Positions 1,446 to 17,084 of a stretch of 22,433 bases of DNA are shown here, piece by piece. Location: the IMG/VR virus record IMGVR_UViG_2627853732_000005; one strand, 5' to 3'. The position numbers and the translations under genes are program-made. Under the pieces are notes generated by a model. The model was not told where the DNA came from. It did not search any database and saw only the letters and a list, made by a program, of their open reading frames with translations. The stretch is from a virus (Duplodnaviria > Heunggongvirae > Uroviricota > Caudoviricetes). The stretch's first letter is position 1, and each line of letters begins with the position of its first letter.

Positions 1446-1488
1446 TGAGGTGTACTGGCAATAGCGGACACTACCATTTGTTCTTTTT

Positions 1489-2307
1489 TTAAGCAGCCAT
1501 CTGATGATATTTTTCCCTGAAGGCTGCCGGGGAGATATTCCCCAGACGAGAGTGACGACGCTGACGATTGTAGAAAATCTCAATGTATTCCCGTATTACT
1601 GAGATGGCTTCATCCCGGTTATTAAAACGATAGTGGCTCAGGCTCTCATTTTTCAGCGTTCCCCAGAAGCTTTCCATCGGAGCGTTGTCGTAACAGTTAC
1701 CTTTACGCGACATTGATGTTTTCAGACCAGACTGCTCCTGTATGACCCGGTAATCGTATGCGCAGTACTGTGAACCTCGATCAGAGTGGTGGATTAGCCC
1801 GGCAGGTGGGCGCTGGCTCCTGAGCGCCATAAACAGGGCTTTACCTGTCAGCTCTTTTGTCATGCGCTCTCCCATGGCGTAGCCGACAATTTCGCACGTA
1901 TAAACATCTTTGATGCCAGCGAGGTACAACCATCCCTCCTGTGTGGCAACATACGTCAGGTCCGCCACCCAGACCTGATTTGGTGCTGTAGGAGCGAACG
2001 TCTGGTTCAGCAGATTTGGCGCAACTGGCAGATTGTGGTTCGAGTTCGTAGTCGCTCTGAACTTGCGTTTCTGCTTACAGCGTAGCCTTAGCTCCTTACG
2101 AAGACGTGCCAGTCGGTCACGACCAACGATGATGCCATTCTCTGCCAGCTCCGTCTGGAGCCGCCGGGTTCCATATGTTTCGCGAGTGCGGATATGTGCC
2201 ACCTTAATCTCCAGTTTTAGCCGCTCATCACTTTGTTTTCTGTCTGAGGGTTCATGCTGTACCCAGTTGTAATAACCGCTCCTGGATACACCAAATACCT
2301 GACACAT
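1489..2307 (-). CDS. IS3-family transposase OrfB (DDE integrase-like domain), copy A
   Basis: 272-aa ORF whose translation matches OrfB of the other copies (MCQVFGVSRSGYYNW...HSDRGSQY...). Confidence 0.85.
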   Translation of the reverse strand: MCQVFGVSRSGYYNWVQHEPSDRKQSDERLKLEIKVAHIRTRETYGTRRLQTELAENGIIVGRDRLARLRKELRLRCKQKRKFRATTNSNHNLPVAPNLLNQTFAPTAPNQVWVADLTYVATQEGWLYLAGIKDVYTCEIVGYAMGERMTKELTGKALFMALRSQRPPAGLIHHSDRGSQYCAYDYRVIQEQSGLKTSMSRKGNCYDNAPMESFWGTLKNESLSHYRFNNRDEAISVIREYIEIFYNRQRRHSRLGNISPAAFREKYHQMAA

Positions 2308-2342
2308 CGCTTCAATGGGAAATTGTTGTCGCCATTGTTCGA

Positions 2343-2622
2343 TTAACGCGTATTTTTCAGCGACTCCTGTGCAAAATACGCTGTTGCTTTTTTTAATATA
2401 TCTCGCTCAAGGCGAGCTTCATTTAACGCCTTACGCAGTTGCAGAATTTCAGATTCCAGTTCAGCCACCGTGCGGGAACCAGGAGTACCGAGCCCTTTTC
2501 TGGCGGCGGTAACCCATTGTCCTAAAGTGCCTTCAGGAAGAGATAATCGGGAAGCGCCTTCACTGATCGAAAGTTGATTTTCAAGAACCGTTCTGACAGC
2601 TTCAGCTTTGAACTCTTTAGAG
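2343..2622 (-). pseudogene. IS3-family OrfA (HTH), N-terminally truncated, copy A
   Basis: Track ORF 2343..2645 reads MWSAGIDTSKEFKAEAV... where intact copies read MSRKTQRYSKEFKAEAV.... The first codons therefore come from flanking istA sequence. Confidence 0.7.
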
Positions 2623-3295
2623 GTATCGATACCGGCTGACCACACAGCGCTTCGGGAACGCTGTAACGATTACCACCAACCTCGATATAGCTGTCCCAGG
2701 ACACATGGCGGATATCGAAGTAACTGGTATCGAAGTCTGTATCCGGTAACGGCTGCAGATGTTCCTGCTCCAGCGCGAAGCGCTGTTCCGGCGTTTCTTT
2801 GAACTGGCGAAGCTCCCGTTTGTCAGCCACATCGGCTATCCATTGCTCCAGTTGTTGATTGACATGAGTGAAGCTGTCGAACCTGCGGTACCGGACGAAG
2901 AAGTTCTCCTTGAGGTATTTCACCATCCGCTCAACCTTACCTTTTGTTCTGGCCCTGCGTGGACGGCATGCCCGTGGCAGGAAGTTATAGTGGTCAGCCA
3001 GCAACAGGAATCCGGAGTTGAACACGACTTTCCCGTTGTTATTCTTCAGCACCGCAGCCTTCTGGTTATCAACCAGCACCGTTTTCACACAATCACCGAA
3101 GTAGCGGAAGGCGCGAACCAGTGATTCGTAGGTATGCTCAGCATCCTGTTTTGGTGCGGCGAAGACATGGAAGCTGCGGGAGAACCCCAGCGTATTAACC
3201 GCAAAGTTAACTTTGCACCGTTGCCCGGCAACCTCCACCTCAACTTCGCCCCAGTCATGCTGGAGCTGGTATCCAGGCTGAGTTTCGAAGCGAAC
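2623..3295 (-). pseudogene. istA: IS21-family transposase IstA, central/catalytic fragment
   Basis: Translation from 3295 downward reads VRFETQPGYQLQHDWGEVEVEVAGQRCKVNFAV...LPRACRPRRARTKGKVERMVKYLKENFF, the IstA DDE-region pattern as I recall it. It is cut at 2622/2623 by truncated IS600 copy A. The track ORF 2522..3238 is this frame running on into IS600. Confidence 0.65.
3293..3295. repeat. 3-bp target-site duplication (AAC), left copy, of IS600 copy B
   Basis: AAC directly abuts both ends of the element (3293-3295 and 4560-4562). Confidence 0.8.
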
Positions 3296-3359
3296 TGAGG
3301 TAGCCTGAGTTTAACGGACACTCCTTCCTGAAATAGAATGGCATCAGAAGGAGCTAATA

Positions 3360-3662
3360 ATGAGCAGAAAAACCCAACGTTACTCTAAAGAGTTCAAAGC
3401 CGAAGCTGTCAGAACGGTTCTTGAAAATCAACTTTCGATCAGTGAAGGCGCTTCCCGATTATCTCTTCCTGAAGGCACTTTAGGACAATGGGTTACCGCC
3501 GCCAGAAAAGGGCTCGGTACTCCTGGTTCCCGCACGGTGGCTGAACTGGAATCTGAAATTCTGCAACTACGTAAGGCGTTAAATGAAGCTCGCCTTGAGC
3601 GAGATATATTAAAAAAAGCAACAGCGTATTTTGCACAGGAGTCGCTGAAAAATACGCGTTAA
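3360..3662 (+). CDS. IS3-family transposase OrfA (HTH DNA-binding)
   Basis: 100-aa ORF MSRKTQRYSKEFKAEAVRTV...; the identical protein recurs at 12777 and, with one substitution, at 12298 and 20743. Confidence 0.9.
   Translation: MSRKTQRYSKEFKAEAVRTVLENQLSISEGASRLSLPEGTLGQWVTAARKGLGTPGSRTVAELESEILQLRKALNEARLERDILKKATAYFAQESLKNTR
3611..3617 (+). other. candidate programmed -1 ribosomal frameshift site (A7 run followed by G) joining OrfA to OrfB
   Basis: TTAAAAAAAGC near the orfA 3' end. The -1 frame from this point reads KKSNSVFCTGVAEKYALIEQWRQQFPIEAMCQVFGV..., which runs into OrfB. IS3-family elements are known to make OrfAB this way. Confidence 0.6.
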
Positions 3663-3697
3663 TCGAACAATGGCGACAACAATTTCCCATTGAAGCG

Positions 3698-4516
3698 ATG
3701 TGTCAGGTATTTGGTGTATCCAGGAGCGGTTATTACAACTGGGTACAGCATGAACCCTCAGACAGAAAACAAAGTGATGAGCGGCTAAAACTGGAGATTA
3801 AGGTGGCACATATCCGCACTCGCGAAACATATGGAACCCGGCGGCTCCAGACGGAGCTGGCAGAGAATGGCATCATCGTTGGTCGTGACCGACTGGCACG
3901 TCTTCGTAAGGAGCTAAGGCTACGCTGTAAGCAGAAACGCAAGTTCAGAGCGACTACGAACTCGAACCACAATCTGCCAGTTGCGCCAAATCTGCTGAAC
4001 CAGACGTTCACTCCTACAGCACCAAATCAGGTCTGGGTGGCGGACCTGACGTATGTTGCCACACAGGAGGGATGGTTGTACCTCGCTGGCATCAAAGATG
4101 TTTATACGTGCGAAATTGTCGGCTACGCCATGGGAGAGCGCATGACAAAAGAGCTGACAGGTAAAGCCCTGTTTATGGCGCTCAGGAGCCAGCGCCCACC
4201 TGCCGGGCTAATCCACCACTCTGATCGAGGTTCACAGTACTGCGCATACGATTACCGGGTCATACAGGAGCAGTCTGGTCTGAAAACATCAATGTCGCGT
4301 AAAGGTAACTGTTACGACAACGCTCCGATGGAAAGCTTCTGGGGAACGCTGAAAAATGAGAGCCTGAGCCACTATCGTTTTAATAACCGGGATGAAGCCA
4401 TCTCAGTAATACGGGAATACATTGAGATTTTCTACAATCGTCAGCGTCGTCACTCTCGTCTGGGGAATATCTCCCCGGCAGCCTTCAGGGAAAAATATCA
4501 TCAGATGGCTGCTTAA
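3698..4516 (+). CDS. IS3-family transposase OrfB (DDE), copy B
   Basis: 272-aa ORF from the first ATG. Differs from other copies at one visible residue (NQTFTPTAPN versus NQTFAPTAPN). Confidence 0.9.
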   Translation: MCQVFGVSRSGYYNWVQHEPSDRKQSDERLKLEIKVAHIRTRETYGTRRLQTELAENGIIVGRDRLARLRKELRLRCKQKRKFRATTNSNHNLPVAPNLLNQTFTPTAPNQVWVADLTYVATQEGWLYLAGIKDVYTCEIVGYAMGERMTKELTGKALFMALRSQRPPAGLIHHSDRGSQYCAYDYRVIQEQSGLKTSMSRKGNCYDNAPMESFWGTLKNESLSHYRFNNRDEAISVIREYIEIFYNRQRRHSRLGNISPAAFREKYHQMAA

Positions 4517-4559
4517 AAAAAGAACAAATGGTAGTGTCCGCTATTGCCAGTACACCTCA

Positions 4560-11564: not shown

Positions 11565-11894
11565 CTATGCCACGACCTGTTCAAAATCTGCCGTTATGGT
11601 TACCCACAACGCCCCCACGCTTGCCGACCATTTACGACAAACCACCCTGATCGGCTTCCAGTCATAAGGTGGCGTCCACTGAAATGCGCGGACGCCACCG
11701 TGCCGTTCCAGAAAGGCTTTTAAAAATGGGTGTTCACCTTTACGAACACGTATCTTCACGCTGTAAGTCGACAACTGGTTATTCAGTCCCGCCGCACGAC
11801 GCTGTTCATAACCATCGCCCAGCTTCACTGTCACCACTTTCGGCTCTGATACCACATTCATATCCGGGCGCACTTTCCAGTGAAACGTCTCCAT
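11565..11894 (-). CDS. M: minor tail protein M
   Basis: 109 aa, METFHWKVRPDMNVVSEPK...FEQVVA, lambda gpM-like; its start overlaps the stop of the H fragment (TAATG). Confidence 0.95.
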   Translation of the reverse strand: METFHWKVRPDMNVVSEPKVVTVKLGDGYEQRRAAGLNNQLSTYSVKIRVRKGEHPFLKAFLERHGGVRAFQWTPPYDWKPIRVVCRKWSASVGALWVTITADFEQVVA

Positions 11895-12233
11895 TACCGG
11901 TATGCTCCACTTAACCGGCCACCATCACGGGCCTGCTGTTGCATAAAGTCCGCGGCCGCTTTTTTCCCGAGGTCATAAACCACCTTCAGGGCAGCCGGAC
12001 CTATCTGCCCGTTCGTGCCATCGTTATTGATCTCAATGTTGTACTGCGGGGCAAACATCACCATGCCTGAACCACCAGTATCCGCCACACCCCCCAGCTT
12101 ACCATCAGCACCGCGACGCAGTGGCAGAATGGCTTCAGGTCCCGCTTCCCCCATCACACCCGCGCCTTTTGCAAAAGCAAAAAACGTCGGACGGTTAACC
12201 ACCGTGCCACTGTAGCGACTCAAATCAGCAGAC
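11894..12233 (-). pseudogene. H: tail tape-measure gene H, C-terminal ~110 codons only; 5' part replaced by IS600
   Basis: Track ORF 11894..12259 begins with codons read out of the IS600 left end (SVKLRLPQ), then continues as an open frame that ends at the stop overlapping the M start. Identity inferred from position and frame. Confidence 0.7.
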
Positions 12234-12715
12234 TGAGGTAGCCTGAGTTTAACGGACACTCCTTCCTGAAATAGAATGGCATCAGAAGGAGCTAATAATG
12301 AGCAGAAAAACCCAACGTTACTCTAAAGAGTTCAAAGCCGAAGCTGTCAGAACGGTTCCTGAAAATCAACTTTCGATCAGTGAAGGCGCTTCCCGATTAT
12401 CTCTTCCTGAAGGCACTTTAGGACAATGGGTTACCGCCGCCAGAAAAGGGCTCGGTACTCCTGGTTCCCGCACGGTGGCTGAACTGGAATCTGAAATTCT
12501 GCAACTGCGTAAGGCGTTAAATGAAGCTCGCCTTGAGCGAGATATATTAAAAAAAGCAACAGCGTATTTTGCACAGGAGTCGCTGAAAAATACGCGTTAA
12601 TCGAACAATGGCGACAACAATTTCCCATTGAAGCGATGTGTCAGGTATTTGGTGTATCCAGGAGCGGTTATTACAACTGGGTACAGCATGAACCCTCAGA
12701 CAGAAAACAAAGTGA
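12234..12715 (+). mobile_element. IS600-like element, copy C, left 482 bp only
   Basis: Left terminal repeat at 12234, orfA, and the first ~20 codons of orfB. The sequence then jumps at 12713-12715 (shared TGA) into the left end of copy D. Confidence 0.85.
12298..12600 (+). CDS. IS3-family transposase OrfA, copy C
   Basis: 100 aa; carries the VPENQ variant (VLENQ in copies B and D). Confidence 0.8.
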   Translation: MSRKTQRYSKEFKAEAVRTVPENQLSISEGASRLSLPEGTLGQWVTAARKGLGTPGSRTVAELESEILQLRKALNEARLERDILKKATAYFAQESLKNTR

Positions 12716-12776
12716 GGTAGCCTGAGTTTAACGGACACTCCTTCCTGAAATAGAATGGCATCAGAAGGAGCTAATA

Positions 12777-13079
12777 ATGAGCAGAAAAACCCAACGTTAC
12801 TCTAAAGAGTTCAAAGCCGAAGCTGTCAGAACGGTTCTTGAAAATCAACTTTCGATCAGTGAAGGCGCTTCCCGATTATCTCTTCCTGAAGGCACTTTAG
12901 GACAATGGGTTACCGCCGCCAGAAAAGGGCTCGGTACTCCTGGTTCCCGCACGGTGGCTGAACTGGAATCTGAAATTCTGCAACTGCGTAAGGCGTTAAA
13001 TGAAGCTCGCCTTGAGCGAGATATATTAAAAAAAGCAACAGCGTATTTTGCACAGGAGTCGCTGAAAAATACGCGTTAA
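12777..13079 (+). CDS. IS3-family transposase OrfA, copy D
   Basis: 100 aa, identical in translation to copy B OrfA. Confidence 0.85.
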   Translation: MSRKTQRYSKEFKAEAVRTVLENQLSISEGASRLSLPEGTLGQWVTAARKGLGTPGSRTVAELESEILQLRKALNEARLERDILKKATAYFAQESLKNTR

Positions 13080-13114
13080 TCGAACAATGGCGACAACAAT
13101 TTCCCATTGAAGCG

Positions 13115-13754
13115 ATGTGTCAGGTATTTGGTGTATCCAGGAGCGGTTATTACAACTGGGTACAGCATGAACCCTCAGACAGAAAACAAAGTGATGAGCG
13201 GCTAAAACTGGAGATTAAGGTGGCACATATCCGCACTCGCGAAACATATGGAACCCGGCGGCTCCAGACGGAGCTGGCAGAGAATGGCATCATCGTTGGT
13301 CGTGACCGACTGGCACGTCTTCGTAAGGAGCTAAGGCTACGCTGTAAGCAGAAACGCAAGTTCAGAGCGACTACGAACTCGAACCACAATCTGCCAGTTG
13401 CGCCAAATCTGCTGAACCAGACGTTCGCTCCTACAGCACCAAATCAGGTCTGGGTGGCGGACCTGACGTATGTTGCCACACAGGAGGGATGGTTGTACCT
13501 CGCAGGAGCAGTCTGGTCTGAAAACATCAATGTCGCGTAAAGGTAACTGTTACGACAACGCTCCGATGGAAAGCTTCTGGGGAACGCTGAAAAATGAGAG
13601 CCTGAGCCACTATCGTTTTAATAACCGGGATGAAGCCATCTCAGTAATACGGGAATACATTGAGATTTTCTACAATCGTCAGCGTCGTCACTCTCGTCTG
13701 GGGAATATCTCCCCGGCAGCCTTCAGGGAAAAATATCATCAGATGGCTGCTTAA
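13115..13754 (+). pseudogene. IS3-family transposase OrfB disrupted by internal deletion, copy D
   Basis: Track shows two fragments (13115..13540 and 13470..13754) in different frames; the first diverges after EGWLYLAG. Confidence 0.8.
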
Positions 13755-13979
13755 AAAAAGAACAAATGGTAGTGTCCGCTATTGCCAGTACACCTCACAC
13801 TCTATCCAACAAACCACCCACAGTTAATCGGAATAAAAGCAGAGTGCTTATGAATGATCGCACGCCCGAAGGTTAGTATTTCTGCACAGCAATTTTGCAA
13901 AAAAAGGCGATCATTCATAACTTAAACGTCTTTCAGTCACTCCGGGATTTCCCATCATCGCAGACTGAAAGACTCTGAC

Positions 13980-14054
<75 letters not shown>

Positions 14055-14057
14055 ATA

Positions 14058-14133
<76 letters not shown>

Positions 14134-14135
14134 GC

Positions 14136-14212
14136 TGGCCCACCACCGAGGACTCGAACCTCGCACCGTCAACTTAGAAGGTTGATGCTCTATCCGGATG
14201 AGCTAGTGGTGG
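14136..14212 (-). tRNA. tRNA-Arg (anticodon UCU)
   Basis: Reverse complement CCACCACTAGCTCATCCGGATAGAGCATCAACCTTCTAAGTTGACGGTGCGAGGTTCGAGTCCTCGGTGGTGGGCCA. Acceptor CCACCAC/GTGGTGG, anticodon stem TCAAC/GTTGA, loop CTTCTAA; encoded CCA. Confidence 0.8.
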
Positions 14213-14213
14213 T

Positions 14214-14290
14214 TGGTGGCCCTTGCTGGACTTGAACCAGCGACCTGGCGATTATGAGTCGCTCGCTCTGACCAACTGAGCTAAAGGGCC
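14214..14290 (-). tRNA. tRNA with CAU anticodon, most likely Ile2 (lysidine type) rather than elongator Met
   Basis: Reverse complement GGCCCTTTAGCTCAGTTGGTCAGAGCGAGCGACTCATAATCGCCAGGTCGCTGGTTCAAGTCCAGCAAGGGCCACCA. Anticodon loop CTCATAA. Overall close to E. coli ileX as I remember it; Ile versus Met cannot be settled by eye. Confidence 0.75.
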
Positions 14291-14479: not shown

Positions 14480-15034
14480 TCAAAAAGCAATAACTTTTTT
14501 CTCTATACCAAAAGCCATAACCATTGGTTTGTACAAAATAAATTCTGCCACCTTTAGCCAATGCTCAATGCGTCTTTCACAGGTTCTTAAACTCCATTTC
14601 GGGTGTGCATCATTCAGCAGTTCAGCCATTTTGCGTTTGGTCATCCCCCGCCCCTCATACCGTTGCCGAAGGACGCTAATCAATCCTGGATGCTCTGCCA
14701 GCACCTCACTTATGACCCGATCAATACATAACGCCTCTGCATCAGTACAATGCGCCAGCCAGCTCTTTTGCTTACCGTTAATCATATCCCGCAAAAAAGC
14801 CTCAAGTTCAGACTTGTTCAGACCTGCTTTTTTCATCCTCCGGAGCGCCTCGTTAATTGCCGTTTTTGTCAGCTTTTTAGAGGTCAACATCAGGTTAAAC
14901 ATATTCCCCGTCTTACCGCCACCAATATACGACCAGCGCCCCCACATACGTAGTTTTCCCTGAATCCAGACACTTTCCAGCGTGGTGAGACGAAGGTGTT
15001 CTCCGCTTTTTCCTGTATTCGTTGGGTAAATCAT
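14480..15034 (-). CDS. late-gene antiterminator Q-like protein (QuuD/Q82-type)
   Basis: Start reassigned to ATG at 15034 (MIYPTNTGKSGEHLRL...), which overlaps the upstream stop as ATGA and is preceded by GGAGG. Contains LRMWGRW and CTDAEALCIDRV, resembling the ERWGAW / C.DD...I motifs of QuuD as recalled. Sits between nin genes and the terminator/tRNAs. Confidence 0.65.
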   Translation of the reverse strand: MIYPTNTGKSGEHLRLTTLESVWIQGKLRMWGRWSYIGGGKTGNMFNLMLTSKKLTKTAINEALRRMKKAGLNKSELEAFLRDMINGKQKSWLAHCTDAEALCIDRVISEVLAEHPGLISVLRQRYEGRGMTKRKMAELLNDAHPKWSLRTCERRIEHWLKVAEFILYKPMVMAFGIEKKVIAF

Positions 15035-16204: not shown

Positions 16205-16310
16205 GATGCCTCCAGGTTTATAAGTACAAACGGTTATATCAACATAGAGACAAAAGGTGATGCTGCCAACTTACTGATTTAGTGTATGATCGTGTTTTTG
16301 AGGTGCTCCA

Positions 16311-16586
16311 GTGGCTTCTGTTTCTATCAGCTGTCCCTCCTGTTCAGCTACTGACGGGGTGGTGCGTAACGGCAAAAGCACTGCCGGACATCAGCGCTAT
16401 CTCTGCTCTCACTGCCGTAAAACATGGCAACTGCAGTTCACTTACACCGCTTCCCAACCCGGTACGCACCAGAAAATCATTGATATGGCCATGAATGGCG
16501 TTGGATGCCGGGCAACTGCACGCATTATGGGCGTTGGCCTCAACACGATTTTACGTCACTTAAAAAACTCAGGCCGCAGTCGGTAA
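16311..16586 (+). CDS. insA: IS1 InsA
   Basis: [43 protein letters not shown]..., 91 aa. Confidence 0.95.
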
Positions 16587-17008
16587 CCTCGCGCATACAG
16601 CCGGGCAGTGACGTCATCGTCTGCGCGGAAATGGACGAACAGTGGGGCTATGTCGGGGCTAAATCGCGCCAGCGCTGGCTGTTTTACGCGTATGACAGTC
16701 TCCGGAAGACGGTTGTTGCGCACGTATTCGGTGAACGCACTATGGCGACGCTGGGGCGTCTTATGAGCCTGCTGTCACCCTTTGACGTGGTGATATGGAT
16801 GACGGATGGCTGGCCGCTGTATGAATCCCGCCTGAAGGGAAAGCTGCACGTAATCAGCAAGCGATATACGCAGCGAATTGAGCGGCATAACCTGAATCTG
16901 AGGCAGCACCTGGCACGGCTGGGACGGAAGTCGCTGTCGTTCTCAAAATCGGTGGAGCTGCATGACAAAGTCATCGGGCATTATCTGAACATAAAACACT
17001 ATCAATAA
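16505..17008 (+). CDS. insB: IS1 InsB reading frame (expressed as an InsAB' fusion after a -1 frameshift)
   Basis: 167-aa ORF as given by the track; the functional transposase is known to be the frameshift fusion. Confidence 0.9.
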
Positions 17009-17084
17009 GTTGGAGTCATTACCAAAAAAACCGCCGAAACGGGTTAAGTGCGGGTGCGTTGAGGATGCCTGACACATCAAAGGT

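Follow-up and report, generated by a model that had tools for sequence, protein, structure and literature searches.

Tandem IS600 segments in a defective lambdoid prophage

The window analysed here is the whole 22,433-bp stretch of IMG/VR virus record IMGVR_UViG_2627853732_000005 (Caudoviricetes), which corresponds to part of the Shigella sonnei Ss046 chromosome (CP000038.1; adding 1,860,697 to a window position gives that in the record). The assignment was made through two ORFs, the 121-aa fusion of tape-measure and IS600 sequence and the truncated 141-aa OrfB of copy D. It carries genes of a lambdoid prophage and five IS600-related segments. Two of these, copies C and D, adjoin each other in direct orientation between the remnant of a tape-measure gene and a phage tRNA cluster. 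The genes at this locus have been annotated since 2005, and those that flank the pair are as follows.

11894-12233, minus strand: 3' remnant of the tape-measure gene (gpH, lambdoid tail), 113 codons, aligned to the end of the 'phage tail tape measure protein' of E. coli FDAARGOS_944
11894-12259, minus strand: SSON_1768, annotated 121-aa ORF, whose start codon and first 9 codons come from the IS600 left end
13980-14290, minus strand: phage tRNA cluster (Gly, Thr, Arg, Met/Ile2), upstream of the lost holin gene
14480-15034, minus strand: Q-like DUF1133 late-regulator gene, retained from the same prophage

E. coli FDAARGOS_944 contains a close relative of this prophage with no IS600 in its late region, to which the sequences on either side of the tandem can be aligned, both in one orientation. 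The two flank points lie exactly 15,110 bp apart in FDAARGOS_944, and all of this DNA is absent from the window. The left flank ends there between ...CAGCAGAC and TGGTAAAC, inside the tape-measure gene and 113 codons before its end; the tape-measure remnant of the window is broken after the same ...CAGCAGAC. The right flank starts between ...GGAAAG and CACTCTATCC, between tRNA-Gly and the holin gene.

The missing interval encodes the holin, lysozyme and Rz-type lysis proteins, terminase, portal, protease/capsid, head-tail and tail-shaft proteins and most of the tape-measure protein. With this interval, the lysis, terminase, portal, capsid and tail-shaft genes are absent from the window. Tail genes M, L, K, I and J and lom are kept on one side of the tandem, and the tRNA cluster and the Q-like regulator on the other. 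Pfam families, tRNAs and colinearity with FDAARGOS_944 identify the region as a defective lambdoid prophage. With these late genes lost, it is unable to lyse, package or build particles, and the locus documents how one S. sonnei prophage got locked in place.

The tRNA gene at 14214-14290 was called tRNA-Met (CAT) by ARAGORN, and the identical gene in relatives is tRNA-Ile according to RefSeq. As a tRNA-Ile, it would belong to the lysidine-modified type that is common in lambdoid phages.

Anatomy of copies C and D

Copies C and D were compared with copy B, which is intact and lies in the same window.

1446-2622, minus strand: copy A, IS600 without its first 87 bp
3296-4559, plus strand: copy B, intact IS600 of 1264 bp, flanked by an AAC duplication
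12231-12233, plus strand: GAC, presumed target duplication of copy C, of which this left half survives
12234-12715, plus strand: copy C, IS600 left stub, positions 1-482 (IRL 12234-12259; GAC on its left)
12713-13797, plus strand: copy D, 1085 bp (IRL 12713-12738, IRR 13772-13797; CAC on its right)
13798-13800, plus strand: CAC, right half of the target duplication of ancestral copy F, the source of the right end of D
20679-21942, plus strand: copy E, intact IS600, flanked by TAG and TTG

RefSeq gives the name IS600 to the same sequence in E. coli, under the label 'IS3-like element IS600 family transposase, programmed frameshift'. Full copies in the window and in E. coli are 99.6-99.8% identical and have TGAGGT...ACCTCA ends, orfA and orfB, an A7G site and a 385-aa OrfAB. 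Copies C and D depart from this pattern in three respects: C consists of the left 479-482 bp only, 179 bp of the rve core are missing from D in Ss046, and the pair has no matching 3-bp duplication.

Copy C matches copy B at 480 of 482 bases. It has an IRL only, and thus C alone is not an element. Copy D retains TG...CA terminal inverted repeats at both ends (IRL and IRR) and matches copy B at 1083 of 1085 bases, being made up of positions 1-790/791 joined to 970/971-1264. The two segments overlap by a TGA (IS positions 480-482), which makes their boundary ambiguous: positions 1-479 belong to the stub unambiguously, and these are the whole stub if D is taken as complete. The only difference between C and D lies at IS position 126, which is C in copies C and E and T in copies D and B. 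This SNP gives OrfA the sequence VPENQ (Pro21) in C and VLENQ (Leu21) in D.

A 3-bp direct target duplication is present at copy B (AAC) and at the ancestral insertion in CP061367.1 (CAC) described below. None surrounds the pair, whose outer flanks are GAC and CAC. The junction inside the pair does not have the structure of a tandem dimer or circle junction either, in which IRR and IRL are separated by a spacer of about 3 bp; instead, IS position 479/482 is joined directly to IRL position 1.

Coding capacity of the pair

The reading frames and related features of C and D are listed below.

12298-12600, plus strand: orfA of copy C, 100 aa, Pro21 variant, HTH_Tnp_1, open
12549-12556, plus strand: A7G slippery site of copy C (IS positions 316-323)
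12777-13079, plus strand: orfA of copy D, 100 aa, Leu21 variant, open
13115-13540, plus strand: truncated orfB of copy D, 141 aa, with HTH_21 and the first 27 rve-core residues, then frameshifted
13470-13754, plus strand: 3' orfB remnant, a 94-aa ORF (rve_3/rve_2) across the deletion junction
13502-13504, plus strand: junction of the 179-bp deletion, with a single shared C at 13503

Owing to the 1-nt repeat (C) at its ends, the deletion in orfB of D can be placed at IS positions 791-969 or 792-970. OrfB codons 130-189 are gone, including the aspartate of HSDRGSQY, and the reading frame is shifted; the loss took out the second catalytic aspartate of D. Pfam recognises HTH_21 in the orfB of D together with an rve fragment that scores 21.7 bits, below the cut-off of 32.6. 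An OrfAB with the DDE (rve) core is thus absent from D in the window, and it is present in D of other S. sonnei strains and in copies B and E. Since D of Ss046 retains both ends and its orfB is broken, it could be moved only by transposase supplied in trans.

A simulated -1 shift at the A7G site turns copy B into the 385-aa transposase annotated by RefSeq. The same shift in copy C yields a truncated OrfAB' of 142 aa ending in ...KQSEVA. Judged from these reading frames, OrfA may be expressed from both promoter-proximal frames of the pair, and the truncated OrfAB' by frameshifting. The junction is not of the IRR-IRL type, and so no strong junction promoter is formed. With dozens of IS600 copies present in S. 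sonnei, such output would be marginal. Nothing points to a selected function of the C and D pair, and the tandem is no working unit but the scar that a deletion left in a defective lambdoid S. sonnei prophage.

These results bear out all sequence statements of the preliminary description, which had let C end at element position 482 and D begin there with TGA in common, distinguished the VPENQ and VLENQ variants, and noted the unmatched outer flanks, the intact orfA of both copies, the 179-bp loss inside orfB at a 1-nt microhomology and the loss of phage late genes at the locus. Its statement that the pair is not a simple duplication stands in so far as C and D differ, and its basis is one SNP only. 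The five copies it counted are five IS600-related segments, of which copy A lacks the first 87 bp.

An ancestral IS600 insertion at the CAC site

Through an exact match to the Q-like protein, we reached the chromosome CP061367.1. Its alignment with the window, which takes in the final 295 bp of copy D and the right flank and extends into the first IS1, has 3 differences in 3523 bases, and the IS1 and copy-E insertion sites are in common. CP061367.1 carries an IS600 exactly at the CAC site, where the CAC is perfectly duplicated (...GGAAAGCAC, IS600, CACTCTATCC), and the holin and lysis genes are still present on the other side of it. Position 126 of this IS600 is C, and that of D in S. sonnei is T. 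The duplicated CAC demonstrates that the right junction of D stems from an older, independent and ordinary insertion, which we call copy F. The mismatch between GAC and CAC is therefore explained by two different insertions and the loss of the DNA between them.

Two same-orientation IS600 insertions thus once lay 15.1 kb apart: copy C, with target GAC, in the tape-measure gene, and a second copy, with target CAC, between the holin gene and the tRNA cluster. The lost DNA begins inside C, after position 479/482, and reaches precisely to the left tip of the second copy, so that the right 785 bp of C are missing as well. What is certain about the join is that internal position 479/482 of one IS600 is fused to the exact first base of another.

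Among E. coli complete genomes, none had an IS600 at either site. A genome with an intact copy C was found neither in these nor in the GTDB representative genomes and JGI metagenomes, and exact pattern scans of the latter two collections for the right junction of an intact copy C and the left junction of copy F gave no match. A match of E. coli FDAARGOS_943 to the right flank of D was rejected, as its IS600 lies in the lysozyme gene about 600 bp away, at a different site.

Distribution and alleles in S. sonnei

Of the 19 assemblies that span the locus, 18 have the 479/482 junction and 18 have both outer flanks. Its carriers include at least 14 independent chromosome-scale S. sonnei contigs, many of them from long reads, and the tandem is thus not an assembly artefact. 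The exact SSON_1768 ORF, which marks the left junction, was found in 440 contigs, and every source name listed for it is S. sonnei; exact look-ups of gpM and gpL returned S. sonnei chromosomes only. BLAST searches of E. coli with 160-bp junction queries merged the two halves of any normal IS600, which made junction matches uncountable there.

The 179-bp deletion is confined to four assemblies (Ss046, AMKH01000050.1, CP151349.1 and UEDG01000243.1), and in all others D has its full 1264 bp, interrupted in one case by an IS2. The 94-aa ORF across the deletion junction likewise occurs in 4 contigs, which come from independent assemblies. The deletion is thus a late, sublineage-specific lesion outside the original rearrangement.

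Two further alleles were identified. In one S. sonnei sublineage, a stub of 255 bp is joined to position 1 of a full copy, with the same outer flanks and SNP pattern as in the 482-bp allele; its marker, a 67-aa truncated OrfA, occurs in 60 contigs. In CP023645.1, a full copy is preceded by two stubs, 1-482 and 1-593, and no flanking DNA has been lost. All three junctions (479/482, 255 and the extra 590/593) end exactly at IRL position 1. The 482-bp stub, the 255-bp stub, the double stub and the 179-bp deletion are separable with short reads, and these four alleles could serve as a cheap lineage marker.

No assembly contains a lone IS600 between the GAC and CAC flanks, the only candidate being L010, which has N at the join. 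The short-read scaffolds L010, L011 and L014, which have other right flanks, were set aside as scaffolding artefacts; the join contains N in L010 and L011. Likewise, neither an unresolved nested intermediate nor a nesting in inverse orientation was seen in the 19 assemblies. The preliminary description had called for long reads that might reveal a collapsed single element and for a comparison of related strains: the long-read assemblies uphold the tandem, and the related strains revealed that D is intact in most S. sonnei and that stub length varies.

Formation of the junction

Two of the three junctions lie at GTGA (479-482 and 590-593), where the TGA is common with the tip of the IS. TGA occurs at 28 of 1262 positions in IS600, and GTGA at only 3. 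The chance that at least two of three junctions fall at TGA is about 0.0015, a figure that was calculated post hoc from three junctions. We then looked at the target preference of IS600. Its target duplications are NAC (AAC, CAC or GAC) at 9 of 13 ordinary insertions, a likewise post hoc count in which 11 sites have both copies of the duplication and the others are those of C (inferred) and F (observed); the sites come from L001, L002, L022 (CP061367.1), L037-L046 and the window. A NAC preference of IS600 was not found stated in the literature cited here. The would-be target triplets at the three junctions are AAG, TCG and GGA, none of which is NAC.

Taken together, the polymorphic junctions that are exact at the IRL, the GTGA coincidence and the non-NAC targets lead us to favour an event that started at the left end of D itself, by a nick or one-ended strand transfer helped by microhomology, to which we assign slightly less than an even chance. 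Most likely, transposase would have nicked the IRL of D, or carried out a one-ended strand transfer there, in the manner of the 'adjacent deletion' of IS3 and IS150. The strand transfer would land on the TGA inside copy C, and 15.9 kb would be lost. A later event of the same kind would, in one S. sonnei sublineage, trim the stub from 479 to 255 bp and, if aimed at a sister copy, would add the second stub (1-593) in another strain. The 179-bp deletion in orfB of D, at its 1-nt repeat, came later, in the Ss046 sublineage. The evidence for a transposase-mediated adjacent deletion, which would depend on active transposase and not on RecA, is indirect and consists of the end-exact junctions, the microhomology and the non-NAC targets. 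We also considered that the internal junction sites might act as pseudo-IRR ends and dropped this idea, since the three junctions have no CA tip in common at 3 nt upstream.

Several observations speak against a start at the left end of D. Were D the CAC-site copy, one more substitution, or a gene conversion, would be needed to turn C into T at position 126. In the two-stub allele, sequence has been gained, which calls for a sister-chromatid or template-switch version of the event. In addition, the 255 junction has no microhomology, and the collections searched yielded no genome with an intact copy C.

It is tempting to speculate that the allelic series may record a non-canonical natural pathway of IS3-family elements, in which a left-end nick seeds one-ended strand transfer or microhomology-primed template switching; we regard this as tentative and somewhat unlikely. 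In such a pathway, an upstream acceptor would result in a deletion, and a sister-copy acceptor in a partial tandem duplication. Should the microhomology pattern hold in further junctions, it would be natural evidence for end-initiated, non-canonical rearrangement in IS3-family elements. Absent such a pattern, the locus is an ordinary IS scar.

A third IS600 with T at position 126 could instead have nested as a circle into C at 479 in the same orientation, after which RecA recombination with the CAC-site copy deleted the 15.1 kb; the 255-bp and 593-bp stub alleles would then be further nested insertions, each resolved by direct-repeat recombination. Every step of this scheme is textbook IS3-family biology, and IS600 is very active in S. 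sonnei (PMC7373316). It explains without an extra mutation why position 126 is C in the stub and in the CAC-site copy of CP061367.1 and T in D, and it accounts likewise for the two stubs of CP023645.1. However, it requires three same-orientation insertions in one target of 1.3-1.7 kb, with none of the three would-be duplications being NAC although IS600 offers 81 NAC sites. It does not predict the coincidence of two of three junctions with TGA or GTGA, and no nested intermediate or inverse nesting turned up in any of the 19 assemblies. We consider this course of events quite possible, though well short of an even chance.

If recombination came first, C and F would have exchanged to leave one hybrid IS600 with GAC and CAC flanks, at the cost of the 15.1 kb, and the 479-bp stub would have been gained afterwards, in the way in which CP023645.1 acquired its 593-bp stub. 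Among IS-mediated deletions, those by recombination between direct copies are the commonest, and CP023645.1 is an example of a left stub gained at this locus with the flanking DNA intact. This order of events is nevertheless improbable: it takes more steps than the other models, and the single IS600 between the flanks that it predicts is found in no assembly, the one contig resembling it being the N-containing scaffold L010.

The preliminary description had read the locus as an insertion of one IS600 into another and a subsequent loss of the distal part along with the phage late genes; taken literally, one deletion would have run from the right end of D through the rest of C and the late genes to a chance CAC point. 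The presence of a stub beside a copy and the absence of the late genes fit that reading. It is contradicted by CP061367.1, which is 99.9% identical in the alignable right-hand region and has a CAC-duplicated IS600 at that very nucleotide, so that the end point of the deletion was not set by chance; we regard it as very unlikely. Mis-assembly of a single IS600, conceivable for repeats in a 2005 Sanger assembly, has a practically negligible chance of being correct in view of the junction in 18 assemblies, including many long-read chromosomes, the 179-bp deletion junction in four independent assemblies and the 255-bp allele in 60 contigs.

Relation to known IS rearrangements

IS911 and IS2 form tandem dimers and circle junctions in which IRR and IRL are separated by 3 bp, and in S. 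dysenteriae 1 a defective Stx prophage is flanked by IS600. A tandem dimer or circle junction is also known for IS30 (PMC9333248). The pair resembles the tandem dimers of IS3-family elements and IS30 in that two copies in direct orientation abut at the IRL tip. In contrast to the IS911, IS2 and IS30 junctions, the partner of the IRL here is internal position 479/482, so there is no IRR with a 3-bp spacer and no reactive junction.

Our preferred reading, an event from the left end of D, finds its closest counterpart in the adjacent deletions of the IS3 family. [quoted passage not shown] 1994 as PMC11708052 cites it. As in those cases, the IS is kept, the DNA beside one end is lost and a target duplication is absent, and the 479-bp and 255-bp stub alleles compare with the stepwise extension of IS150. 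The S. sonnei locus differs in that the far end point is internal to a second IS600, terminal microhomology of 3-4 nt is present at two junctions, and one allele is a stub gain.

S. sonnei harbours dozens of IS600 copies, and IS-driven decay of prophages and genomes is documented in Shigella (PMC7373316). Debris of IS600, an IS3-family element, at an IS-mediated prophage deletion is a kind of feature already well known in this genus, and IS3-family elements drive much of its genome reduction. As at the Stx prophage of S. dysenteriae 1, IS600 bounds a crippled lambdoid prophage whose late genes are deleted and whose other genes are kept, with nothing essential that differs. The locus is a case of ordinary genome decay, in which the strain differences at the junction hint at how deletions of this kind form. 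The new points are modest, namely the exact 15,110-bp reconstruction, the ancestral CAC-site insertion and the allelic series with terminal microhomology.

Neighbouring IS elements

Other IS elements of the window have also been rearranged. Copy A is joined at 2622/2623 to an internal fragment of an IS21-family istA-like gene. The istA-like ORF (2522-3238) contains Pfam rve and Mu-transpos_C_2 domains, and copy B with its AAC duplication is inserted in the same fragment. Two IS1 copies (16256-17020 and 19772-20540) bracket 2.75 kb of prophage DNA; CP061367.1 has a single IS1 and lacks the 2.75-kb segment, which looks like an IS1 x IS1 deletion.

Copy E has TAG and TTG flanks and no duplication in S. 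sonnei. The insertion at the same site in CP061367.1 has a TAG duplication, with DNA of the prophage early region on its right. With the duplication present in CP061367.1 but not in S. sonnei, the latter must have undergone a second loss anchored at an IS600 end.

IS600 itself was struck at positions 448-452 by different ISs in two genomes, CP180008.1 and CP061367.1. The inserted elements are an IS2 (1331 bp, 5-bp duplication) and an ISEc52/IS911-like element (1249 bp, 3-bp duplication), and this region may be an insertion hot spot inside IS600. Finally, the reverse strand of UGZB01000001.1 (8465-10021) carries a full IS600, GAC and then IS600 positions 1-290, a true tandem junction of IRR, 3 bp and IRL as it would come from IS3-family circles or dimers.
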